Source: a virus | Length of the DNA stretch: 50,874 bases | IMG/VR virus record: IMGVR_UViG_3300036783_000164 | Span: 1-50,874 of that record | Direction: 5' to 3' (one strand) | In this document: piece by piece, positions 438 through 36,597 of the stretch | Numbering within the stretch: the first letter of the stretch is position 1 | Layout of the letters: every line of letters starts with the position of its first letter | Translations under genes and position numbers: made by a program | Notes under the pieces: model-generated | Seen by the model: only the letters and a program-made list of their open reading frames with translations | Told to the model about the DNA's origin: nothing | The model's database searches: none

Positions 438-587
438 TTATCCCATTCCACCTCCGGGATCGACCATCATTCTATACGTATTTTCTTGAACAACCTTCGC
501 TGATTGCTCCTTTTGATCTTTAGCAGGAGATATGTATAGTACTCCAACTAGAGTCAATGTCGCTACAATAGCTAACACTTTTTTCAT
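438..587 (-). CDS. aimP: AimP-like arbitrium propeptide, 49 aa
   Basis: Hand translation gives MKKVLAIVATLTLVGVLYISPAKDQKEQSAKVVQENTYRMMVDPGGGMG. It has an N-terminal signal-like hydrophobic segment. Its ATG overlaps the aimR TGA (ATGA). Confidence 0.7.
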   Translation of the reverse strand: MKKVLAIVATLTLVGVLYISPAKDQKEQSAKVVQENTYRMMVDPGGGMG

Positions 588-1810
588 TTAGCATCACCCA
601 TATATATTATACCATTTTTATTAAAATCTACCAACATTTTTCTCGGTAATTTGCTGTAAAATCTGTTCCCTGCGCACTCGAAATCCACTATTGACTCTTC
701 TATCAATTTAATGTCTTTCAACGCATAACCTAAAATGCATTTTTTCATAGGACTTAACTTACCGTCTTTTCTTTCGCATTCCTTTAAAAGTTTAATCGCT
801 ACATCAGACTTTCCGATTAGCGCTTGGTAAAAAGCTTCTTCGCACACATTATAGATTTTAATTTCCTCTATCCCTTTATTACAGACAAGTTTAATAAACG
901 CGAAAGTATTTATAACACTTTCTTTTCTTTTTATCACTCTTTCAAAATGGCATGCGTCTAACATTTCTAACGATTTATTGATATACCAAGAAGCTCTTTC
1001 GTAACTTTCGAAAGTGTAAGACTCTGCAAGATATACTAAAGCTGATGCTCTTAAAAGAGAAAAACAATTTTTTTCGTCTTTTAAATTCATTATTTCATGA
1101 CACAACTCTCTGGATTTCTCGACGTTATCTTGCATTAAATAAGCGTAAGACAACCCTTCTTTAATTCTTCCTGAATATGCCGTTCTAATGAAATCATCTG
1201 GGATTTCTTCGACTTTTGGTTGCAATACTTCAGCATATTCAAACAATGAATTAAATTTTTCTAAATCATACATCGTATAGAAAGTTAGTATTCCATATAA
1301 CACTTTCATTTCTTGTGTCTTAATTACCTTACTTCTCTTACGGTCTTCTAATTTCTCTAATAATCCCTTACCACTAACGACACCCTTATTTCGCATCCAT
1401 ACCAATTCATATACATAAGCCCATTCTCTATTCATCGCCAACGAAGATGTTTTTTCTATATCTACAATCAACTTTAATAATTCTAAGTCACCAATTGCAT
1501 TGGCATATTCCATTGCAATTCGCATATTTTGTTTGCTCGTTGTAACTGAACAAAACTTATGTAGCATTTCTTTCTTTTTTAAAGCGTCGTCACCATACAA
1601 GATGTTAAGCAACTTAATCATATTCCAAAAATTAAATTGGCTCTTGCCTGACAAGTTTTTGGAAAACGATCCGCCTTTGATACCTAACTCCTTCGCAATA
1701 TCTTCTTGATTCCTTCTTTGAAAATCAATTCCATCAATAAGTTTGTTCAAAAATCCCCTTAATGCTTTCTTTTTCAATTCCTCTTGTTTTTGTTTAAGTG
1801 TCTGATCCAT
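584..1810 (-). CDS. aimR: AimR-like arbitrium receptor / HTH-TPR transcription regulator
   Basis: N-terminal HTH (EDIAKELGIKGGSFSKNLSG) followed by an all-helical TPR-like body. Segments recall phi3T AimR: AMEYANAIGDLE vs ALEYADANMFFE, and IKTQEMKVLYGILTFYTMYDLEKF vs IKTPEMNSFSRLLLLYHYLSTGNF. The ATG at 1810 is preceded by AAGGAG. Confidence 0.8.
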   Translation of the reverse strand: MDQTLKQKQEELKKKALRGFLNKLIDGIDFQRRNQEDIAKELGIKGGSFSKNLSGKSQFNFWNMIKLLNILYGDDALKKKEMLHKFCSVTTSKQNMRIAMEYANAIGDLELLKLIVDIEKTSSLAMNREWAYVYELVWMRNKGVVSGKGLLEKLEDRKRSKVIKTQEMKVLYGILTFYTMYDLEKFNSLFEYAEVLQPKVEEIPDDFIRTAYSGRIKEGLSYAYLMQDNVEKSRELCHEIMNLKDEKNCFSLLRASALVYLAESYTFESYERASWYINKSLEMLDACHFERVIKRKESVINTFAFIKLVCNKGIEEIKIYNVCEEAFYQALIGKSDVAIKLLKECERKDGKLSPMKKCILGYALKDIKLIEESIVDFECAGNRFYSKLPRKMLVDFNKNGIIYMGDAK

Positions 1811-1920
1811 CAAATTTGCTCCTTCTGGAACAAAGACGCTTCGCTCTTTCCCTCAAATTTTAAACAGGAAATTCATACCATAGTAATGCTTTAGTAATAT
1901 CGGCATGTTATAATGTAAGT

Positions 1921-2034: not shown

Positions 2035-2341
2035 CGTTCCGTTTATTTTAATGTTTTCATAATACCACATTTTTCCCAAAATTCAGTCGTGTAGTTATCA
2101 GACAATTGTTGAGAAAGTTGAGAAACCGCTTCAAATCAACGTTTCTAAGTGATGTAAAAATAAAATATGCAAATATGCATGGAACGTATAAAAGACTTCA
2201 CATGCATATATTACCATAAAATCGAACTTTTGTTCTATTTTTATTATATTTTTTAGTTGTTAAACGACTAAAATCGCCGTTTGGTTAATAAAACAACTTA
2301 TTGTAGTAGTATGATAGTTCAATATTTATACTTAAATTACT

Positions 2342-2686
2342 ATGATAATCTTTGGACAAACTTTAAAACAGTTAAGAAAGTCGCGTGATTTAACACAAGC
2401 AGAGTTAGCTGAAACTCTTAATTTAAGTCAGAGTCAAATTAAGAATTGGGAAACTGGTCGATTTCAACCGGATATTCAAACTTTAGCGAGTATCGCCTCC
2501 TTTTTCAATGTTTCTTTAGACGTCCTTGTAGGTTTCTCTAACAATTTCGAGGATGAACCAATACAACAAGTCATTTCTGAAGCTAGGTCAACGTATGGGG
2601 CGTTAGACGATGCTCAGAAAGAGCGCTTTTGTAATCAAGTGTTGTTGTTTATTCGAATGATTAAAGATAACCAAGAAACGTTCTGA
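2342..2686 (+). CDS. XRE-family HTH transcriptional regulator
   Basis: LKQLRKSRDLTQAELAETLNLSQSQIKNWETGRFQPDIQTLASIASFFNVSLDVLVG is a canonical HTH_3 pattern. No obvious SD. A TATACT hexamer 9 nt upstream suggests a possibly leaderless mRNA. Confidence 0.8.
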   Translation: MIIFGQTLKQLRKSRDLTQAELAETLNLSQSQIKNWETGRFQPDIQTLASIASFFNVSLDVLVGFSNNFEDEPIQQVISEARSTYGALDDAQKERFCNQVLLFIRMIKDNQETF

Positions 2687-2880
2687 TTTGATTTCATTGT
2701 AGAAGAAAAGTTTTCCAATGAATAGTGGTAAAATTTGACATAATTTGACCAATTGTGGTAAGAGGGCATATTGCTCTCTTTTTTTATTTTCATTCGACAA
2801 AATATGACAAAATAGTTGTAACTGGATTTGTTATGCTTAAATTGAAAATCTTACATTTTAGAAAGAAAGGATGCAATGTT

Positions 2881-3420
2881 ATGGGCTTTAAGTTTAGAAA
2901 AAGTATCAAAGTTGCTCCTGGAGTTAAAGTGAATCTAAGTAGTAAAGGTGTGGGAATGAGTGTAGGAGGAAAGGGTGCTCGTGTCAGCGTAGGCCCATCA
3001 GGTACTAGAGTTACCTCTTCAATTCCAGGCACTGGACTTTCTTACGAAAAACGTATTAGTAATAAAAAGAATAGAACTATCCAAAAGAGATCAGCTCAAG
3101 AATATCAGGAACAATATTACCCTGGTACATATGAAGTTAATACTTTCCAAACAAAAGATAATAAGTTAAATCATGGCGCTAGAAAATTAATGAAACCATT
3201 TTTCATAATTTCAATAATTTCTAGTATTATTTCAGCGATTTTATTACCACCTATTTTCGCTATAGTTTTTGCTGTATATAGTTTCTTTTGTTATAAAAAC
3301 TTCAAGGTGCCACACTCCGCGATATGTCCTGGTTGTAATAAGGAAAATACAATGTTATTCAAACGTAAAAAGATAAAATGTATCAAGTGTAGAAGTACAC
3401 TCAATATTAAAAATAAATAA
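2881..3420 (+). CDS. DUF4236-like protein with C-terminal TM segment and zinc ribbon
   Basis: MGFKFRKSIKVAPGVKVNLSSKGVGMSVGGKGARVSVGPSG matches the DUF4236 signature from memory. Hydrophobic FFIISIISSIISAILLPPIFAIVFAV, then CPGC...CIKC. Start moved to the internal ATG at 2881. Confidence 0.65.
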   Translation: MGFKFRKSIKVAPGVKVNLSSKGVGMSVGGKGARVSVGPSGTRVTSSIPGTGLSYEKRISNKKNRTIQKRSAQEYQEQYYPGTYEVNTFQTKDNKLNHGARKLMKPFFIISIISSIISAILLPPIFAIVFAVYSFFCYKNFKVPHSAICPGCNKENTMLFKRKKIKCIKCRSTLNIKNK

Positions 3421-3453
3421 ACTCACTACAAGATTATAGCTGGAGGACGTTTT

Positions 3454-4320
3454 ATGAAAATATCTAATAAAGCGCTGAGTATAAGTGGTATAGCAATTCT
3501 GCTTATACTCTTTGTAAGAGGAATCTATAATAGTATCAATATGTTTGGTGACACTGAATATGGATTTGGATATATTTTAGGGCAAGCAATTGGAGGAACT
3601 TTAGCCTGGTTTAGTATTATTGCATTCATCGTATCTTTAATTTTCTTGGTTATTGGTATTGTGAAGAAAATCAAAAAAACAGGGACTAGAAAACTATTCA
3701 TTACATCAGCTGTTTCGTTTGGAATATCTGTTGCATCTATAGCTATACTTACAGGGATTAGTTTTGTGACTGGTAACATAGAAATTGAACATGAAAAGAT
3801 AGCTGAACAGAAAAAGAAAGATGATGAATATTTAATGGCTGCAGCTAACTTTTACAATGACATTGATTCATTTGAAATGTATTCAACTCTGGTTTTATCC
3901 GGATACTCCAATACATGGTCTGAAGCAATTAAAAACCAAAAAGATTTTAATGTGGAATTAGTTTCTAAAAAAAACGAATCTGAGACCTTGGTCAATCATG
4001 GTGATTTACTCCATACCGAAATGGGGCAACAATTAAAACTAGTTTCAGAGGCTTCTAAAGAACACCCAAAAGAATATAAAGAAGTGTATGAAGAATATAA
4101 AAAGATATATAGCATTATAACGGCGCTCAATGAACAAATGACTTCACCTACTGGTAGCTTAATTTCATTTAATCAGAATGTTAATGCTTTAATTCAAGAA
4201 TATAAAAAGGCTCAAGGGAGTATTAAAATAGCAATTACAGATGAAATTAAAAGTAAATCTGAACAAATCGAAGAATCCAGAACAAAAAAAGCTAATGAAA
4301 CAAAAGTGAATAAAATATAG
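3454..4320 (+). CDS. Membrane protein with long C-terminal coiled-coil/helical domain
   Basis: Three or four hydrophobic segments in the first 110 aa, then a charged helical region. SD ggagga lies upstream. Confidence 0.65.
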   Translation: MKISNKALSISGIAILLILFVRGIYNSINMFGDTEYGFGYILGQAIGGTLAWFSIIAFIVSLIFLVIGIVKKIKKTGTRKLFITSAVSFGISVASIAILTGISFVTGNIEIEHEKIAEQKKKDDEYLMAAANFYNDIDSFEMYSTLVLSGYSNTWSEAIKNQKDFNVELVSKKNESETLVNHGDLLHTEMGQQLKLVSEASKEHPKEYKEVYEEYKKIYSIITALNEQMTSPTGSLISFNQNVNALIQEYKKAQGSIKIAITDEIKSKSEQIEESRTKKANETKVNKI

Positions 4321-4555
4321 ATTTTGTTCACTTTTACGATACATTTATGAAACATTTATATGTTACGTTATATAAGTCCTTTTTTTGAATCATTTTCATT
4401 CTGTCAAAAAGTCCCAGTCCCCTCTAGGGCTTTTTACGTTTAAATAGAGAAGTGTAGCATATTTCTCAATGCATAAAATTACTTAACATGGTAAAATAAC
4501 ATTTGGATTAGCGTCCAATACATATTATTAAAATTAAAGTGGTTCAAGTCGGAGG

Positions 4556-4580
4556 AAGGCACCTTAGGGTGTCTTTTCTT
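4556..4580 (+). terminator. Rho-independent terminator for the 2342-4320 operon
   Basis: AAGGCACC-ttag-GGTGTCTT followed by ttctttat. Confidence 0.5.
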
Positions 4581-4582
4581 TA

Positions 4583-4611
4583 TAAAAAATCCCCTACACA
4601 TAAGAAGGGGA
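4583..4611 (-). terminator. Rho-independent terminator for gene 4624-5193
   Basis: On the minus strand, TCCCCT-tcttatgtgt-AGGGGA followed by TTTTTTAT. Confidence 0.55.
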
Positions 4612-4623
4612 CATACAAGATTT

Positions 4624-5193
4624 CTATATAATAACATCATCTTTATTTAAAATTTTTATAGCTTTTTTATTAATCTTTGCAACCTCTTTACTTATCAAAG
4701 GTAAATCAAATTCATGATCTTTGAATGTTATTTTTAATTCTTCTTTATCGAAAAACTTAAGATGAGTATCTGGATCTATATCGAATCTATCTTTAACCCC
4801 AATACAAGCGTTAGTATATACATTAGATTTAGAACTTCTCGACCAATCAAACATTTTTTCATCAAAATGTTCAAAGCAATTCCTTACTTTTCTAGATTTT
4901 AATGGAGAATCATCAGTAACTTTTAAAATGTTTCTTAAATATTCTCTATCACGATCCTCGTCTTCTTTTTTCTTTCTCTCCTCATCATTCCTTGGATTTT
5001 TAAATGAACCCCATAATAACTTTGCTATATTAGCACTAGAATTTAAAAAAGACTGAGCATAAAACCAAAAGGCTCCTGCATCTACCTCATATTCTTGATT
5101 CAAGGCATTTTCCATTCCTTCAGTTGCATAAGAAACAAACTCACATTGAAGGTTTATTTCCAGTAAAAAAGCATGTTTAGTTAATTCATTCAT
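4624..5193 (-). CDS. Hypothetical protein with HEPN-like Rx4H motif (candidate RNase/abortive-infection-type moron)
   Basis: 189 aa, predicted all-helical. RNCFEH (R-x4-H) lies in the C-terminal half and an acidic/basic linker is in the middle. The gene is monocistronic with its own terminator. Confidence 0.55.
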   Translation of the reverse strand: MNELTKHAFLLEINLQCEFVSYATEGMENALNQEYEVDAGAFWFYAQSFLNSSANIAKLLWGSFKNPRNDEERKKKEDEDRDREYLRNILKVTDDSPLKSRKVRNCFEHFDEKMFDWSRSSKSNVYTNACIGVKDRFDIDPDTHLKFFDKEELKITFKDHEFDLPLISKEVAKINKKAIKILNKDDVII

Positions 5194-5439
5194 AAGACCA
5201 CTCCTTTAAATGATTATAAAATTTCACATACTATATCTTAATTATAAACACAAATTCCAAAGCAAGTCATTTTATAATCATCTACCACCTTTATCCTCTA
5301 ACCAAGTAAGTAGTAAATCCTTTATTTATTCCTCTATCTTAGTGAGTCATTCCCCCAGAACTTAAACAATCTCGTATTTTTCATCTTTTCTTCATAATTA
5401 ATCTTGACTGAAGGTCTTGAGGGTTTTTATCATGTGGGA

Positions 5440-6210
5440 ACGATTATGGAACACGGCTGGAAGGCAGATTTATCCCCTACTTTGAAAGACTACAAATAGA
5501 GTAATCAGTCAAAATAGATGGATAAGCGTCTTTGTTTTCGCCATGCGGTCACTTATAAGGTATCCGTATGTATAGACCCTGTTCACTCAGCGATCTTCAT
5601 CGCATACATCCTTTTACTATGGCTTGTCCTTGTAATATCGTCCCTACACGACAAACTGAATGCACTCCCTAGCACCGTGATGCTAACGATAACCACCCGA
5701 ACCTTTTAGAGAATCGTCCCTGGGTAAGTTCTCACCCACCCCCACCAGAAGAACAGGATTCCAATGAGGGGTGCTGTTTTTGTAGGCGCATACTCTGTAC
5801 CCCCTGCACGACCAACAGCTAGCCACGCACGTAACACGTTCCTCCTATATATAGCAGCACGGAATTACGGCTTATCAGTTTTTATTTACGTGGTATCAGG
5901 CAATTCCACGCGAACAAAAAACAAAAAGGCATCTCCAATACCTAAAATGGCCTGTAGATCCACAAGACTTCTAGGTTTAGAGATGCCCGCTATATATCTT
6001 TTGACTACAAAAAATACAATTCTAGCATTTACTAGTTGAATTTTAGTCAAACAATAGATAAAATGGGTATATCAAAGAAGCCTCGTGAAAAGGCATAATT
6101 GTTTAAGATAGTGGTGGTACACTACTTAAACCGAAATTCTGTATGGGTACAGATTAGTTCTAGCAAAGTCATTCCCGCTAATGGTTGGCGCCAATAGCAT
6201 ATGGGAGTGG
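5440..6210. ncRNA. Candidate large structured non-coding RNA or other non-coding element (strand unresolved)
   Basis: More than 1 kb without a credible ORF, and visibly more G+C-rich than the flanks. Long-range 8-bp pair GGCATCTC (5928-5935) / GAGATGCC (5980-5987). Hairpins GCGAT-cttc-ATCGC and TAGCA-ccgtga-TGCTA. Possible promoter TTGACT-N18-TATCAT near 5404-5433 (+). Confidence 0.3.
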
Positions 6211-6388
6211 CTTTTTGTTTTGTGTTCATATTCAATTGTTTTGTTCAATCTATTTATATAGATTTGATTTATCAAATTATGTTTTGTTTTGTAGAATGTT
6301 GCTTGTTGTTTATTACGTTACAACAGGCTTTTTTGTTTGTAAATACCTCTATAAGTGTGTTTATGGCATCTAATCAATTTAATTGAAG

Positions 6389-6505
6389 GATAAAAAGATA
6401 CAAAGATAAAAAGATACATTTATCCTTAGATACAAAGATACATAGTTCTCCTTTGTGTATCTTTAGATACAAAGATAAAAAGATACAAAGATAAAAAGAT
6501 ACATC
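6389..6505. repeat. Array of AAGATACA / AAAGATAAAAAGATACA direct repeats with one inverted copy (centromere/iteron-like)
   Basis: Read directly: gataaaaagatacaaagataaaaagatacatttatccttagatacaaagataca...gtgtatctttagatacaaagataaaaagatacaaagataaaaagataca. Confidence 0.85.
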
Positions 6506-6577
6506 TATTAACGCTGATTTTATAGGGTTTTTATTAAAAGTTATGTACACGAAAAATAGGGTTAATCTATTAAACAT

Positions 6578-6600
6578 AAAAAAAGATACATTTATCCTTT
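6578..6600. repeat. Copy of AAAAGATACATTTATCCTT unit
   Basis: The same 19-mer occurs at about 6410-6428, 6581-6600 and 6650-6668. Confidence 0.8.
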
Positions 6601-6638
6601 TACTTTTTGTACAAGCTCGTGTTATTATCAATTCGAGA

Positions 6639-6669
6639 ATAAAAAGATAAAAAGATACATTTATCCTTT
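6639..6669. repeat. Copy of AAAAGATAAAAAGATACATTTATCCTT unit immediately upstream of parA
   Basis: Read directly. It lies about 40 bp upstream of the parA GTG start. Confidence 0.8.
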
Positions 6670-6707
6670 GTTACATTTATATTACAATTTTAAAAGGAGC
6701 GATTCCT

Positions 6708-7655
6708 GTGAAAAAAGGATACGTAATAATCAACGCCCAACAAAAAGGTGGAGTTGGAAAAACAACTGATTCGTGTATGGAATCTCTTGTGGCTTCTTTA
6801 ATCTTTAATAAGAAAGTTTTATTTATTGATACTGATCTTCAAGGGAACGGTACAACGTTTTTAGCGAAATCATTTAATATTACCGAAATGCAAAAGACAT
6901 TAATGAAGTGTCTTGAAGATGGAGACTTGTCAGAAGGTATTGTGCAACTTCATAAAAATCTAGATATGATTCCATGCGGATATGATATGAGGAAATACAC
7001 TGACTTCTTAATCGAAACTTTCAACACGATTGAAGACAGAACTTTTTACCTTTCTAGACTACTAGAAAAAATCAAATATAACTACGACTACATATTCATT
7101 GATATCCCACCTTCAACAGATTTAAAAGTGGATAATGCTATGGTTGCCAGTGATTACATTATTGTTGTTCAAGAAACTCAACAATTTTCATATGAAGGAA
7201 GTCAACGTTTAATCTTTGAATACATCCAAACGTTAGTTGATGATTTCGGATCACTCGTAAAGATGCAAGTCGCTGGAGTACTTCCGGTATTACTACAACA
7301 AAAACGTGCTTTACACAAAGAAATTGTTAAAAGTACAATTGCTACTTTTGGTGAAGAAAACGTATTTACTACGATTATAAATAACCACGCCCGATTAGAA
7401 TGGTATCCACGAATTGGACTGCAATTTGAAGATCATCATGATAAGAGAATGCTAGCTTTATTCTGTGACATTTTCTGTGAGTTGGAAGAAAGAATTCACC
7501 TTTTCGAAATTGAGGGAGATATAGAAGCTGGATATAGATATACTCCAAAGTATTTAGTGGACAACAAGCTAACGAAATTAGGGAAGGGGATTGACATAAG
7601 TGGCTTTAATCAAAAGGGAAACACCGCAAGAACCGAAAATAGCACAATCTGCTAA
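6708..7655 (+). CDS. parA: ParA/Soj-family partition ATPase
   Basis: Deviant Walker A NAQQKGGVGKTT. GTG start preceded by AAAGGAG. The gene is flanked by repeat arrays. Confidence 0.85.
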   Translation: MKKGYVIINAQQKGGVGKTTDSCMESLVASLIFNKKVLFIDTDLQGNGTTFLAKSFNITEMQKTLMKCLEDGDLSEGIVQLHKNLDMIPCGYDMRKYTDFLIETFNTIEDRTFYLSRLLEKIKYNYDYIFIDIPPSTDLKVDNAMVASDYIIVVQETQQFSYEGSQRLIFEYIQTLVDDFGSLVKMQVAGVLPVLLQQKRALHKEIVKSTIATFGEENVFTTIINNHARLEWYPRIGLQFEDHHDKRMLALFCDIFCELEERIHLFEIEGDIEAGYRYTPKYLVDNKLTKLGKGIDISGFNQKGNTARTENSTIC

Positions 7656-7899
7656 TACAGAAAGAAATGTTCAGAGTACAAATAATAACACCACGCCCCA
7701 AAAGAAAGTTTTAACAGCACAAGATAGAAAGAACATAAAAGTAACTCCTGAATCATTTAGCAAAATTAAAACCATTTGTACAATGAAGAGTATGAAGAAT
7801 TATGAATTCATTGATGAAATTTTAGAGTTCTACATTGCTAATAATTTAACTGAGCGTGAGCAACGTATACTTAAAAATATAACTTCTAGTAACAAGTAG
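7600..7899 (+). CDS. Small partition partner (ParB/ParG-like centromere-binding protein candidate)
   Basis: 99 aa with a GTG start overlapping the parA 3' end. Basic, low-complexity N-terminus and a helical C-terminus. The call rests on position only. Confidence 0.45.
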   Translation: MALIKRETPQEPKIAQSANTERNVQSTNNNTTPQKKVLTAQDRKNIKVTPESFSKIKTICTMKSMKNYEFIDEILEFYIANNLTEREQRILKNITSSNK

Positions 7900-7934
7900 A
7901 TATGAGGAAATCCCGTCCTCATAGCATTCCTTTA

Positions 7935-7987
7935 TGTATCTTTGTATCTTTGTATCTTTGTATCTAAAGATACATGTATCTTTTTTT
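7935..7987. repeat. Inverted-orientation array TGTATCTT x4 plus palindrome TGTATCT-aa-AGATACA plus TGTATCTT
   Basis: Read directly: tgtatctttgtatctttgtatctttgtatctaaagatacatgtatcttttttt. It is the reverse complement of the repeat unit upstream of parA. Confidence 0.85.
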
Positions 7988-8213
7988 AAAAGGGACACTA
8001 ATATTCATACTGTATATCGAGTGAAGCTGAAGAAAAGTCGAGAATAGGTATAAGGTTTAACTTTATACCTATCTAAATAAACTCATTTATAAAAAGCAAA
8101 AGGGAGATAAGCATAACGCTTGTCTTTTTTATTTATTCTCAAAGGTTTTTAGGGAGGATTGTAGATTCTTAGGGAGAATGTTGCAATAGGAACGAAAGGG
8201 GGAACGGATATAA

Positions 8214-8834
8214 ATGGATCAGGAACAGTGGAACGGGAATCGTGACTCATTAGAGAAATCTTATTGGACTAAGGAAGTTGCTGAGACACTTGGTATAAGT
8301 GATAGCTATTTACGTAAATGGTGTTTGGAACTTGAGAAGAACGGGTACAAATTTATCAAAGTTAAGGACGGAAAGAACAGAGAGAACCGAGCTTTCACGG
8401 AACACGACTTGATTGCATTGCGAAAGTTTCAATCCCTTATCGGGAACGCAGGAACGACACGTTCTATGGCCGCTAAAGTCATTGCTGAAGAGTACAGTTC
8501 AGAAGATAGGAACGGTGGAACGGGGGGTGTTCCTGCACCTCTTATTAGAGATAATGATCGTGAGAAAGCCTTGGAGGAACTGAAACAACTAGCATTCACT
8601 GCTTGGAAAGATGAATTAAAATCAGAGCTTAGAGAAGAGATTAAACAAGAGCTTAAAGAAGAAATACAGCAACAAATGAACGAGGGAATACAATCAGCAG
8701 AGGAACGTCTTGGTGAACGTTTAAAGAGCCATGACGAATTACTCATGCAAACGATTCGCGAACAACAAGAGACTAAAAAGATGTTAGTTGCAGCGCAGGA
8801 AAAGAAGAAATGGTGGCAATTCTGGATTAAATAA
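8214..8834 (+). CDS. MerR-like HTH protein with C-terminal coiled coil (DUF3967-like)
   Basis: YWTKEVAETLGISDSYLRKWCLELEKNGY is a MerR-type HTH. The C-terminal part is an EELK-rich coiled coil. Confidence 0.6.
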   Translation: MDQEQWNGNRDSLEKSYWTKEVAETLGISDSYLRKWCLELEKNGYKFIKVKDGKNRENRAFTEHDLIALRKFQSLIGNAGTTRSMAAKVIAEEYSSEDRNGGTGGVPAPLIRDNDREKALEELKQLAFTAWKDELKSELREEIKQELKEEIQQQMNEGIQSAEERLGERLKSHDELLMQTIREQQETKKMLVAAQEKKKWWQFWIK

Positions 8835-8836
8835 AA

Positions 8837-8862
8837 AGCCCTGCATATGCAGGGCTTTTTTT
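8837..8862 (+). terminator. Rho-independent terminator
   Basis: AGCCCTGCATATGCAGGGCT followed by TTTTTTT. Confidence 0.8.
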
Positions 8863-8973
8863 ATATTCTACATCCTTATGCAATTACATAACATAGATAT
8901 AGTCCGTTACCCCTGTAACTCTTCCTAACTTCGACCGTACAACTGGGTGTGCTGTTTAGTTAGGGAAGAGTTA

Positions 8974-9582
8974 CTATATTTTCGTTGCAAGACTCTCCAT
9001 AAAATTGTTAATTGAAGAAGCTTGATAGATTCGTAAATTAGAAGAATTAATATCATACTGCTTATCAGTAATGATGAGGATCGATGGAAAGTATTTAGTT
9101 CCTTTCGGTTGCCACGATTCGTTGTGCCATTCCTGACTGTGGAAGTATAATTCATACCTGTTGATTTTATCTTGCATAATCTTTTTACTGTAAACTGACT
9201 TTTGAACTTCAATGAAGAATGGAGATCTGCGCCATATTGTAAATGCATCAGGTTCCATAAATTCTTTTCCATATTTCGGTTCAACTTTAAATAGTTTTGG
9301 TTTTTCATAATGGATAAGCTGTTTATAAACGTCCACGATACCAAGAAAATGAGGAATCTTTTGGCTAGTTTTTCGAAGTGTGCTAGGTTGGGGAAAATAT
9401 ATAAATGGCTGCTGTATGATATTGGCATCCACATGACCATCTCTTCTTAATCGTTTCATCACTGTATTACAGCAAGTAACCGCGTTTTTTACCCCTTGAA
9501 AATGCAAATCTATAATGTCATTACGTGACATACATCTGAAGCGTTTCAAATCGCCCAGTATCGCTTTATCTCTACTCTTCAT
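8974..9582 (-). CDS. Replication-relaxation family protein
   Basis: 202 aa. N-terminal wHTH-like ILGDLKRFRCMSRNDIIDL. It overlaps the upstream FtsK-like gene, a pairing typical of B. cereus-group phages (from memory). Confidence 0.65.
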   Translation of the reverse strand: MKSRDKAILGDLKRFRCMSRNDIIDLHFQGVKNAVTCCNTVMKRLRRDGHVDANIIQQPFIYFPQPSTLRKTSQKIPHFLGIVDVYKQLIHYEKPKLFKVEPKYGKEFMEPDAFTIWRRSPFFIEVQKSVYSKKIMQDKINRYELYFHSQEWHNESWQPKGTKYFPSILIITDKQYDINSSNLRIYQASSINNFMESLATKI

Positions 9583-10738
9583 AATCTAACACCCCAAACA
9601 ATTGATTCTCTTCTCGTGGAGGATTCTGGTGCTTCATATCCTCTTTAGGAATGCGATAAGGTTCAACGATTTGTTTCGCTTTGCTTAATTCTAAATAAGG
9701 AGCTTGCACTTTCTTTAATCCATTTAATTTCAATATCATTTGGCCCGATTGCTCTAAATGTTCTGAACCAGGTGTACCCATGATATTACTGTTAATCGTA
9801 CTATCACATTTAAAGCCCATTCTTACCGTCATATTGAGTTTTAACTTACCATCTAATACTTTTGCGTCAGGACGTTGCATACTGAGCATAAGGAAGACAC
9901 CAAGTGATCTGCCGACTGCCGATATTTTTTCGATTGTGGACATACATTCTTTTTCATCTTGCAACATAGCTACTTCGTCAATAGCAAGTAAAATATATGG
10001 TTTCTGATTGTCAGGATTCATTTTGTTGTATTCATCAATATGATCTACTTCATACTCTTCCATCAATTTTCTACGTTCGCGTATTTCCTTCCACATTTTC
10101 TGCAGCATGATCTTCATTTCGATTTCTTCCATGCAAACATCTTTTACGTGTTTCACTCTTCGCAAAAAATGAAATTCAGAATTCTTCAAGTCGCCCAGGT
10201 ACAAATGTAATTTATCCGGAGACATGTATTGAATGAGTGTGGACAGAACAACACGTACCATACTACTTTTACCGCTGCCTGTTTCCCCAGCTATCAGTAA
10301 ATGTGGTGTATTTGAATCAACCATGTCATACACAATCATGTGTCCGAATTGGTCACGACCCACCACAACAGGAAGACGATGTTGTTTTAGTAATGGCTGC
10401 CATTGTTTATAGTTGTAATTGTATGGTTGCAGTCCTGCATCTGAATGAAACACATTGAGTACAAACCGCTTAATATCACCTTCAATCGCTACGTTACGCC
10501 CTAATATTTGTTGAAAGCAAAACCATTTCTTTTCAATTGTCTTAGGATCCAAACCATTTGGAATAGTAAATACATATCGAATATTTTCTTGTGTGGAAGA
10601 AATGGAATGTATTTTTGGATAAATAGGTACTTTCCCACCTCTCGTTTGATGGTCCACAAATAAACCTGCTTTTCCAAATACCTCTATAAGTTGATTCTTC
10701 AAACTTTGTTTATGAAACCAATCCTTTACAATCCCCAT
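9572..10738 (-). CDS. FtsK/SpoIIIE-family DNA translocase ATPase
   Basis: Walker A GETGSGKSS and Walker B LLAIDEVAML. Start moved to MGIVKDW (10738), which is preceded by AAGGGGGG. Confidence 0.85.
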   Translation of the reverse strand: MGIVKDWFHKQSLKNQLIEVFGKAGLFVDHQTRGGKVPIYPKIHSISSTQENIRYVFTIPNGLDPKTIEKKWFCFQQILGRNVAIEGDIKRFVLNVFHSDAGLQPYNYNYKQWQPLLKQHRLPVVVGRDQFGHMIVYDMVDSNTPHLLIAGETGSGKSSMVRVVLSTLIQYMSPDKLHLYLGDLKNSEFHFLRRVKHVKDVCMEEIEMKIMLQKMWKEIRERRKLMEEYEVDHIDEYNKMNPDNQKPYILLAIDEVAMLQDEKECMSTIEKISAVGRSLGVFLMLSMQRPDAKVLDGKLKLNMTVRMGFKCDSTINSNIMGTPGSEHLEQSGQMILKLNGLKKVQAPYLELSKAKQIVEPYRIPKEDMKHQNPPREENQLFGVLDYEE

Positions 10739-10749
10739 ACGTTCCCCCC

Positions 10750-10944
10750 TTAAAACATAATTACGAGCCTGATAAATACATAACCAATGAAACAAACTCC
10801 ACCTATTCTCATTCCGTGATACATTCCATCACTCAAAAGTTTAGCTGCTGCAACGTGATCATTCTTTACAAGGTGCTTTTCTAATATCGCCCCACCAATT
10901 GTCGTTACTCCCAAAACTCCTAAAGAAACAAATGTAGTTAACAT
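10750..10944 (-). CDS. Small membrane protein
   Basis: 64 aa with two hydrophobic segments. First gene of the FtsK operon. SD ggggag lies upstream. Confidence 0.5.
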   Translation of the reverse strand: MLTTFVSLGVLGVTTIGGAILEKHLVKNDHVAAAKLLSDGMYHGMRIGGVCFIGYVFIRLVIMF

Positions 10945-11010
10945 ATAAAACTCCCCTTTATAAACAGATTTTTAAACACTGATGATATATGGGTTTAACG
11001 CCTCAAAACC

Positions 11011-11154
11011 TTGATAGTGTTACTTTGATAGCTAACTTGATAGCTACTTTGATAGTACAAATACTAGTTACCTTGATAGCAATTAAGCTATTTACTTTGA
11101 TATCTACTTTGATATTAAGTTTGATAGCTACTTTGGTAGCAACCTTGATATAGC
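11011..11154. repeat. About 10 direct copies of (C)TTTGATAGC(T) at 11-12 bp (some 22-24 bp) spacing
   Basis: Read directly: ttgatagtgttactttgatagctaacttgatagctactttgatagta...ccttgatagca...ctttgatatctactttgatattaagtttgatagctactttggtagcaaccttgatatagc. Confidence 0.85.
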
Positions 11155-35795: not shown

Positions 35796-36597
35796 TTCAA
35801 GGGGATGGGAGAAAAGAGAGAAAACAAATGGCAAAGTTTCTCTTAGATCAAGGCTGAGTACTCTCAACCTTCTCAAAACAACCGATACATACAATGTGGC
35901 TCAGGTTTTTAGCTCTTTGGCTATCCTGATTATCGTGTTCGGTTGCTTAGAGAAGGAAAAGACCTTCTCGTTTATACTCCGTAGAGCTTGTCGAATGAGA
36001 GCTATGGTGTAACTCTCTTATAAAGTTTTTTTAATTTTTATCAAGACGTATGAGTTTATTCCGACGCCTTGTTTGAACCAATACACTAGAGGGACGGAAG
36101 GGGAATGTTTCCGCTGTATTGGCTCAAACAAAGAGTGGAACTCTTTGCCCTCGTTTTGGTCATTAATAAGAATCGTGAGTAATTACTAATGTACGAGATA
36201 CGTATACAACTTATTTGGGGTACTCAGAAACGTGATGTTTGTTCAATCAAGAACAACCACCCCCATTTCCATTTTCAAGAGACGACATAATAGAGAGTAA
36301 TAGACTTATATTTATTATCAACCCAGAGGACGCATTCCGAGCTGATTGATAAATACAATAGAAACAGCATGACGAATGCGAGTTATCTCACACCCGCCAC
36401 ACTGGAATATGTCATTGTAATACATTCATTGGTCTTTTCGTCTTAACGCGGGTTCGTACCGCCTTGCCCGCCCTACTATGCGGTATACGTTACCGTGACA
36501 TTCTCGCATAAGAACGTTTCACTTATAGGTGTACTAATCCTCTTCAATATGCTGTTGTCAAAGGGCTTGTACATTAAGAATACCGTTGATTTCATTA
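35796..36597 (-). ncRNA. Candidate large structured non-coding RNA (about 0.8 kb)
   Basis: No ORF in any frame. It is embedded in a tightly packed minus-strand operon, is G+C-richer by eye, and ends at a terminator. A 16-bp interrupted helix pairs 36068-36085 with 36115-36133. Hairpins lie at 36129-36147, 35950-35969 and 35850-35871. Confidence 0.4.

Follow-up and report, generated by a model that had tools for sequence, protein, structure and literature searches.

The phage-plasmid record IMGVR_UViG_3300036783_000164 (50,874 nt; hereafter the window, whose coordinates are used throughout) carries at 5300-6388 a tract that is bounded on the left by a minus-strand gene (4624-5193), for which no Pfam family was matched, and on the right by 8-bp repeat arrays that precede parA (6708-7655). 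This tract is non-coding, is better conserved than its flanks and presents its parts in the order found in the replication region of plasmid pHT1030. Judging from sequence comparison, we think it probable that the tract is a module for replication in the plasmid mode, and that it is a new variant, distinguished by its RNA body, of the family of ori1030 (pHT1030), whose members use no Rep protein. The family is predicted to carry a large, pseudoknotted RNA, supported by covariation, that lies outside Rfam. We know of no published mechanism for the Rep-free replication of ori1030, a workhorse origin of Bacillus vectors, and no accessible paper was found to give one.

Relationship to the ori1030 replication region

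Window positions 5904-6216 align with 4347-4659 of CP041081.1 and with 9409-9721 of the 15.2-kb plasmid pIS56-15 (L012 and L004 in our labelling) at 66-70% identity (E 3e-24 to 4e-19). A profile of the window class also matched CP041081 in nhmmer (E 2e-17), the match beginning at the element that we call hairpin 2. CP041081.1 (9926 bp, from a Paris strain) was deposited as 'Bacillus tropicus LM1212-W3 plasmid p8'; it bears TEM bla, ermB, a lacZ fragment and pUC sequence, and is therefore a laboratory shuttle vector of the pHT304 type, not a natural plasmid. Its sole Bacillus-derived DNA (2151-4790, 2645 bp) is 99.6% identical to pIS56-15 7213-9852, has a longest stop-free stretch of 115 codons, and contains the ori1030-homologous segment within its 2.64 kb. 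The distance from a P1-like promoter (3755) to the end of this fragment (4790) is 1.04 kb; Lereclus and Arantes reportedly found a minimal pHT1030 replicon of ~1 kb that is free of ORFs (open reading frames). The pUC part begins at ~4800, ~135 bp past the terminator of the small RNA described below as RNA-B, and at most ~135 bp beyond that terminator is present in pHT304. The natural plasmid pIS56-15 has tnpI and a transposase gene of the Tn3 family, which fits Tn4430. Vectors of the pHT304 lineage are described as replicating in Bacillus via ori1030, which we take to be the origin of pHT304, pHT315, pHT370, pBQ200, pGP380 and pBS0E (Arantes & Lereclus 1991; Lereclus & Arantes 1992).

The likeness to ori1030 extends over the whole layout of the module. 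Both have a promoter of the P1 type with its upstream context and, behind it, a G+C-enriched, structured body of ~0.5 kb (450-550 bp) free of ORFs; hairpin 2, a further hairpin (T) with a U-run on the minus strand, a second promoter (P2), the terminated RNA-B and a post-terminator motif of the TTTCCGTTC type follow in that order. At the sequence level, the two are homologous from hairpin 2 through RNA-B, which is the 3' third of the module, and the functional ori1030 fragment has no Rep gene. The window likewise has no conserved ORF in 5300-6388 and no Rep-family Pfam match among the genes near the locus. The two differ in that the common part is only 66-70% identical, and in that the window element lies beside parABS in a 50-kb phage-plasmid, whereas the pHT1030 type lies beside spbA in a 15-kb plasmid. 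They also differ in the ~0.5-kb body between P1 and hairpin 2 (structured part ~430 nt), for which BLAST, motif search and a profile hidden Markov model detected no homology to pHT1030. The element is therefore filed as a variant of the ori1030 family and not as ori1030 itself. An earlier reading of the tract from its letters alone (hereafter the sequence-only reading) had proposed a plasmid-mode origin here, and the homology of 5904-6216 to the ori1030 region of pHT1030/pIS56-15 supports this proposal.

The same reading had described a G+C-enriched centre (~5440-6000), a T/G-rich, AT-rich terminal stretch and the lack of any credible gene, and all three descriptions hold. In 200-nt windows, G+C is 0.41-0.485 over 5400-6000 against 0.24-0.33 on both sides, and 6200-6400 is T/G-rich on the plus strand (G+C 0.26, GC skew +0.35, AT skew -0.30). 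The predicted ORFs are poorly kept among non-identical relatives: an intact frame remains at 5518-5709 in 20 of 73, at 5764-6039 in none of 72 and at 6201-6386 in 6 of 67. Length differences among the relatives are mostly not multiples of three, their substitutions show no excess at third codon positions (14.3 / 12.7 / 12.7), and no intact gene, such as would speak for a degraded coding sequence in the window, was found at this place in any of them. Mapping of an origin by GC skew was abandoned, as the skew merely tracks gene orientation. A search of the entire window against Rfam 15 gave no match at the gathering score, and at E<=10 the region 5100-6750 gave chance-level matches only; a search of the window for tRNA and tmRNA genes also found none.

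A search for the tract in relatives, which had been suggested as a check, finds it in 112 PLSDB plasmids, almost always with no annotation under the match; in 76 of the 112, the match spans 80% or more of the query (81-90% identity). The carriers are nearly all B. cereus-group replicons of 50-90 kb, among them NC_007105 (B. cereus E33L), NC_008598 (B. thuringiensis Al Hakam), NC_010183 (B. mycoides KBAB4) and a 52-kb plasmid of B. cereus G9241. An exact-pattern scan located the tract in 78 IMG/VR viral contigs of ~50-70 kb and in plasmid-sized contigs of Bacillus and Peribacillus genomes, one of them labelled Paenibacillus; one small plasmid-sized contig with the element has a coverage of ~6800x. 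A search of a phage collection returned a single partial match, to Bacillus phage C30-2. Identity among ~75 relatives is 94-97% over 5400-5900 and only 86-89% over the full 1.2 kb, and the G+C-rich part is therefore more constrained than its flanks.

On large plasmids, the tract always lies immediately upstream of parA, and the gene on its left side varies. This left neighbour is on the minus strand in every relative whose annotation was checked, an arrangement compatible with a divergent promoter pair or with co-transcription. Smaller plasmids (7-15 kb) of B. cereus, B. mycoides and Planococcus have parts of the tract as well, placed in a gene-free gap of 1.2-1.6 kb, and their annotation lists no rep gene. 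The small carriers as a whole share no protein family, and the window encodes none of their proteins; those of 7-8 kb have no DnaB, no homolog of the MerR/DUF3967 protein discussed below and no common protein of any kind. Such a distribution is typical of a replicon. The B. cereus-group phage-plasmids and small cryptic plasmids of at least 112 PLSDB records and 78 IMG/VR contigs are thereby tied to the ori1030 family. Replicon typing by protein profiles would miss this replicon, so its phage-plasmids would seem to have none.

More than one copy can also be found together. The accessions NZ_CP009604 (strain S2-8, 7.3 kb) and NZ_CP009603 (51.5 kb), which we assign to the same strain as they are adjacent, each bear an element of the window class, that of the small plasmid being ~80% identical to the window, and the megaplasmids CP003692.1 and NZ_CP036068.1 have two copies each. 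These paired and double copies bear on incompatibility and on the formation of cointegrates.

The structured core and its strand

The anatomy given here and below comes from alignments of 11-21 divergent members of the family, and the conservation of promoter hexamers from 74 relatives. The core of the body (RNA-A; 5455-5824, minus strand) is predicted to form a multi-branch domain of ~370 nt closed by the helix 5821-5824/5455-5458. It contains two pseudoknots. In the first (PK1), 5687-5691 pairs with 5636-5640 and all five pairs show covariation; in the second (PK2), 5751-5757, the loop of a 12-bp hairpin, pairs with 5578-5584. Beside the core lies a variable expansion segment (5826-5887, minus strand), an optional hairpin that the window group has and several small plasmids do not; it is gapped in 8-10 of the 21 aligned sequences.

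Models for the two strands were compared on the same 21 sequences. The minus-strand model, which comprises the core, hairpin T and hairpin 2 and includes both pseudoknots, has 112 pairs in 18 helices, with 97.0% of the cells paired as against 38-46% for slid partners. Compensatory changes support 59 of the 112 pairs; slid controls reach 9-19 and shuffled alignments 31.1 ± 2.7, none of 500 attaining the observed number. Further pair types number 123 in this model (reached by 0 of 500 shuffles) versus 88 in the plus-strand model (345 of 500). A plus-strand model, also with two pseudoknots, reaches 114 pairs, 53 of them compensatory, and 93.8% of cells paired; it gave way to the minus-strand model. 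By RNAalifold, the minus strand has 98 pairs (49 compensatory) at -84.7 kcal/mol, and the plus strand 67 pairs (30 compensatory) at -43.9 kcal/mol. Helices 10, 11 and 15 are paired in every sequence on the minus strand only, and helix 12 is at 99.4%. A strand-symmetric helix search, in which G.U and A.C were both permitted, counted 192 A.C against 57 G.U in the robust covarying helices in plus-strand letters, which means G.U on the minus strand. Folding of the single sequence agrees (minus, -188.5 kcal/mol, z = -4.40; plus, -134.9 kcal/mol, z = -1.39). We therefore conclude from these predictions that the folded molecule has the sequence of the minus strand.

Because the covariation favors the minus over the plus strand, the folded RNA would run opposite to the promoter P1, which had been spotted in the sequence-only reading. 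The large non-coding RNA proposed there is supported by the excess of compensatory pairs over the slid controls and by the small terminated RNA downstream. The pairing suggested for GGGGT/ACCCC around 5768-5803 is not supported; covariation pairs the G-run with 5739-5750 instead. The analysis that had been called for, Rfam together with covariation, thus ends with no Rfam match and strong covariation.

The pHT1030 body occupies the same place, is of similar size, has a G+C of 0.42-0.45, is C-rich on the plus strand, and is conserved in ~13 plasmids at 73-100% identity. In five sequences it, too, folds better as minus strand (-125 versus -93 kcal/mol), with 5 A.C against 0 G.U in plus-strand letters. 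As the window core is not homologous to this body, we infer its need for replication from position and conservation alone. The plasmids pBAslCI14 and LM1212 p5 combine a body of the window class with an RNA-B much nearer the pHT1030 type. The family is therefore modular, with a variable body joined to a conserved T-P2-RNA-B block.

Transcription signals and neighboring genes

Promoter P1 (TTGACT-N18-TATCAT, 5404-5433, plus strand; 10 of 12 consensus matches) marks the left boundary of family-wide conservation. The sequence-only reading had pointed to exactly this promoter, and relatives bear it out: the -35 hexamer is TTGACT or TTGACC in 74 of 74 and the -10 hexamer is TATCAT in 65 of 74, while TTGAC is invariant in 11 divergent members. 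In small plasmids, ~25 nt of conserved A/T-rich sequence stand 5' of P1, and the context of P1 is shared by pHT1030 (CP041081 3755-3790).

Past the body, hairpin 2 (ACGTGG...CCACGT, 5888-5911; strand unassigned) is conserved and is the first part common to pHT1030. Hairpin T (5915-5987, minus strand) has a stem of 5978-5987 with 5928-5937, an apical hairpin and then, on the minus strand, a U-run at 5927-5915. Its stem contains the complementarity of GGCATCTC (5928-5935) with GAGATGCC (5980-5987) that had been noticed from the sequence, a pairing that proves real, for it covaries across the family and 7 of the 10 stem pairs have compensatory changes. T folds at -38.4 kcal/mol on the minus strand (z -5.8) and at -19.6 on the plus strand (z -2.4), and its pHT1030 counterpart at -48.9 kcal/mol on the minus strand (z -8.6). 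Of the 21 sequences (alignment A4), most have a U-run after the stem when read as minus strand, and only some when read as plus strand. T is a predicted intrinsic terminator or attenuator of minus-strand transcripts; on the plus strand of the window it is predicted to terminate weakly.

Promoter P2 (TTGAAT-N17-TAAAAT, 6036-6064, plus strand; 9 of 12 matches) has a -35 of the form TTGAxx in 70 of the 74 relatives and a -10 of TAAAAT, TATAAT or TACAAT in 72; the hexamers are conserved at a fixed spacing, and the sequence of the spacer varies. It precedes RNA-B (6071-6218, plus strand), a putative RNA of ~150 nt with 3-4 hairpins, the last a terminator hairpin (6168-6211) with a U-run. RNA-B has 20 consensus pairs, 12 with compensatory changes, and some that are G.U in most sequences and so work on the plus strand only; it folds at -48.4 kcal/mol (z -3.64) and is common to pHT1030. 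Behind it stands the post-terminator motif (6219-6240, plus strand; family consensus TTTCCGTTC-N-TATTAAGTT, window version GTTTTGTGTTCATATTCAATTG), which mirrors the sequence after T on the minus strand. An AT-rich, T/G-rich spacer without strand assignment (6241-6385) is conserved in close relatives only, and conservation with relatives fades past ~6340.

Several further observations concern these signals. Positions 5901-5931, ahead of hairpin T, and 6208-6238, past the RNA-B terminator, form an imperfect inverted repeat (73-77% complementary), as do CP041081 4355-4380 and 4646-4671; both terminators, on opposite strands, are followed by a similar U-run and a GTTC-type motif, and in pHT1030 (CP041081) a hairpin inside RNA-B has a likeness to part of T. 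The idea that the inverted arms evolve in concert was considered and dropped, as scores with the own partner (13.5) and with foreign partners (11.4) did not differ significantly, 38% of foreign partners scoring just as high. Unrestricted RNAduplex pairing of RNA-A with RNA-B spans the entire molecules and so carries no information.

Further to the right, AAAGATA(C/A) arrays (6386-6680, no strand) comprise 11 in-register 8-bp copies in three clusters upstream of parA. Conservation with relatives collapses at these arrays, small carriers have no annotated parA, and the annotated gene sets suggest that the small plasmids are without the arrays. The arrays are probably the partition centromere, adjoining the replicon module and not part of it. 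The sequence-only reading had taken the tract to 6388, next to iteron-like repeats; the element itself ends earlier, at ~6240-6340, and the repeats belong to the partition locus. Similar words, seen in ORF translations only, cluster past a small gene (7600-7899) at ~7934-8000.

The window as a whole is that of a phage-plasmid, encoding AimR, ParA, a replication-relaxation protein, FtsK, an endolysin, DnaB, RecT, YqaJ, an antirepressor and a helix-turn-helix (HTH) repressor. The receptor of the AimR arbitrium family (584-1813, minus strand; Pfam E 1.5e-42) places the element among the arbitrium-using Bacillus phage-plasmids of PMC11526630. Papers on similar Bacillus phage-plasmids treat parABS and a 'repA-like' coding sequence (CDS), not this element (PMC11526630), and the B83 group differs in having RepA and ParM (PMC6669507). 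The protein encoded at 8214-8834 (plus strand) matches only HTH and DUF3967 in Pfam and has no Rep domain; its N-terminal 105 residues are 30% identical (E 6e-13) to a MerR-family protein of pIS56-15 (5727-6440). At least 46 loci have such a MerR/DUF3967 homolog near the element; the 7-8 kb plasmids and the pHT304-type fragment have none. The 8214-8834 protein may serve this type of replicon as an accessory regulator, and may correspond to the CDS named 'repA-like' in PMC11526630.

In pHT1030-like and pBAslCI14-like plasmids, a protein of 346-422 aa is encoded convergently toward the end of RNA-B (pIS56-15 9984-11024, L003 6972-8240 and L007 4057-5166, all minus strand). The 346-aa protein of pIS56-15 has weak similarity to HTH_36 (E 1.7e-4) and, below the cut-off, to RepA_N (E 9e-4), and lies outside the vector fragment. 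Three small plasmids encode, ~600 bp left of the element, another protein, of 164 aa (L002 1940-2434, minus strand; homologs in L009 and L021). Its HTH_36 score is 29.4 bits (above the cut-off) and its DnaD_N signal is weak; in that subgroup it could act as an initiator-like protein or as an accessory of replication. A Rep-like protein common to all the small plasmids was sought and none emerged; the HTH_36/DnaD_N and RepA_N signals are weak and lie outside the vector fragment.

The second G+C-rich tract of the window, at 35800-36500, has a G+C of 0.39-0.44 and a GC skew of +0.12 to +0.15 at 35.8-36.1 kb inside a strongly negative region. It has no Rfam match and, as the sequence-only reading had remarked of 35.8-36.6 kb, no similarity to 5300-6400 (best blastn E = 0.06).

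Possible mechanism, alternatives and known systems

We infer that the module acts as the plasmid-mode origin and that initiation depends on plasmid RNA and host enzymes. Replication would start by means of plasmid transcripts with RNA polymerase and host DNA polymerase, broadly as in ColE1, and no initiator that binds iterons would take part. Minus-strand transcription would begin between T and P2 and would mostly end at T; regulated read-through of T would yield the folded minus-strand RNA, which would serve as a plasmid-specific initiator or pre-primer. The convergent, fully antisense transcript from P1 and RNA-B would then be regulators, the variable, class-specific core would set specificity (incompatibility), and the conserved T-P2-RNA-B block would be the common origin-proximal machinery.

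A number of points weigh against the assignment to the ori1030 family and against this mechanism. The structured core has no detectable similarity to its pHT1030 counterpart, the homology being confined to the 3' third of the module. A search for a sigma-A promoter of the minus strand in the AT-rich 48 bp between T and P2 gave only weak, unconserved candidates (e.g., TGCTAGAAT, 6027->6019), none of them convincing for the folded strand, while P1, the best promoter, is directed opposite to it. Terminator T lies upstream of the core on the minus strand, so that the core would be transcribed only by read-through or from an unrecognized start. Some natural relatives encode an HTH_36/DnaD_N-like or weakly RepA_N-like protein beside the element, the window has a phage replication module including DnaB, and a paper on a similar phage names a 'repA-like' CDS (PMC11526630).

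A bolder version of the same reading may be entertained tentatively. In it, the ~370-nt minus-strand RNA would itself replace Rep as the initiator of replication and would represent a new class of large RNAs; it would recruit or position host replication enzymes at the T-P2-RNA-B block, with at least two non-homologous bodies as swappable specificity modules and read-through of T as the switch of copy number. If true, such modular bodies would explain how several of these plasmids coexist in a cell.

The plus strand offers a different solution, in which the P1 transcript is the functional long RNA, an RNA II-like pre-primer of ~800 nt that reads through T into RNA-B, and the preference for the minus strand is a side effect of base composition or stems from an antisense regulator that is long and structured. 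In favor of this, no promoter is conserved better than P1, which sits exactly at the boundary of conservation, T has no plus-strand U-run in the window group so that transcription could continue into RNA-B, the latter and its terminator are optimized for the plus strand, and a variable 5' body with a conserved origin-proximal 3' part recalls the ColE1 family. We nevertheless regard this solution as unlikely, given that each comparison above disfavors the plus strand: the share of cells paired, the RNAalifold energies, the ratio of A.C to G.U in the robust helices and the z-scores of single-sequence folding. The plus-strand RNA would also be C-rich, and C-rich RNA is unfavorable for a persistent RNA-DNA hybrid.

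It is rather improbable that the RNA has nothing to do with replication, being instead, for example, a regulatory, immunity or defense-related RNA that travels beside the partition cassette in a replicon whose plasmid mode is driven by proteins, either the phage DnaB/initiator module or the HTH/DUF3967 'RepA-like' protein of 8214-8834. In its favor, core and pHT1030 body are not homologous, DnaB and neighboring replication genes are present in the window, and a MerR/DUF3967 HTH protein is found with the element at 46 or more loci as well as in pIS56-15, such a CDS being called repA-like in PMC11526630. However, the core always stands between P1 and hairpin 2, collinear with the ori1030-homologous block, and a structured body of similar size fills the equivalent place in pHT1030. 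Neither the 7-8 kb carriers nor the vector fragment has any of these proteins, and Pfam finds no Rep domain in 8214-8834.

Doubtful, too, is a reading that keeps the ori1030-type origin and lets the fold act as single-stranded minus-strand DNA, a lagging-strand or primosome-assembly signal like the single-strand origins (sso) of rolling-circle plasmids or the ssi sites of ColE1 and F. It would account for a structure that fits the minus strand, for the failure to find a minus-strand promoter and for a strong minus-strand terminator just upstream, which would block transcription into the core; DNA, moreover, tolerates G.T pairs. Yet ssi and sso elements are 100-300 nt of simple hairpins, and a 370-nt domain with two pseudoknots and 94-97% conservation far exceeds them. 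The vector fragment has no rolling-circle Rep, many pairs are G.U in most sequences and their G.T equivalents are weak in DNA, and a leading strand primed by plus-strand RNA would presumably displace the plus strand, not the minus strand. Lastly, a decayed protein gene (a rep or integrase remnant), to which the several short ORFs might point, is almost certainly the wrong explanation, as the ORFs are unconserved, indels are not multiples of three, codon periodicity is absent, none of the 112 plasmids has a convincing gene here, and base-pair covariation accounts for the conservation.

Among known systems, the module does not resemble an iteron- or DnaA-dependent theta origin. No DnaA box with at most one mismatch occurs in 5300-6700, so there is no cluster of such boxes near 6210-6388, which the sequence-only reading had likened to an origin with an unwinding element; the module contains neither iterons nor a Rep gene, and the only repeats are the 8-bp copies upstream of parA. 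A Bacillus-plasmid RNA motif that Weinberg et al. reportedly described in 2010, said to be an Rfam family and much smaller, is similar in being a structured RNA confined to Bacillus plasmids, but no match naming it appeared at E<=10 in 5100-6750. The large 'ornate' bacterial RNAs OLE, GOLLD, ROOL, HEARO and raiA are comparable in kind: they, too, were found as G+C-enriched, ORF-free tracts in AT-rich genomes, measure hundreds of nucleotides, have many covarying helices and pseudoknots, and are often phage-borne. The present RNA differs from them in that it matches none at the gathering score or at E<=10, and in that its linkage to a cloned origin suggests a role in replication.

A further parallel is ColE1/pMB1, with its RNA II pre-primer, antisense RNA I, RNase H and DNA polymerase I. 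The module shares with it the lack of a plasmid initiator protein, a folded plasmid RNA of ~500 nt near the origin and, as we read the arrangement, convergent or overlapping transcription, small terminated RNAs and a variable region next to a conserved origin-proximal one. It differs in having no sequence or Rfam similarity to ColE1, in belonging to a host of another phylum, and in an RNA that is pseudoknotted and opposite to the strongest promoter. One ColE1 feature, a short antisense RNA over the 5' end of the pre-primer, is missing: no promoter/terminator pair for a short countertranscript was found inside the core on either strand, and RNA-B, which does not overlap the core, is not antisense to the folded RNA. 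A ColE1-like working of the module is therefore suggested only by analogy. Should the folded RNA be the initiator, it would be a Gram-positive counterpart of ColE1 with a far more elaborate RNA.

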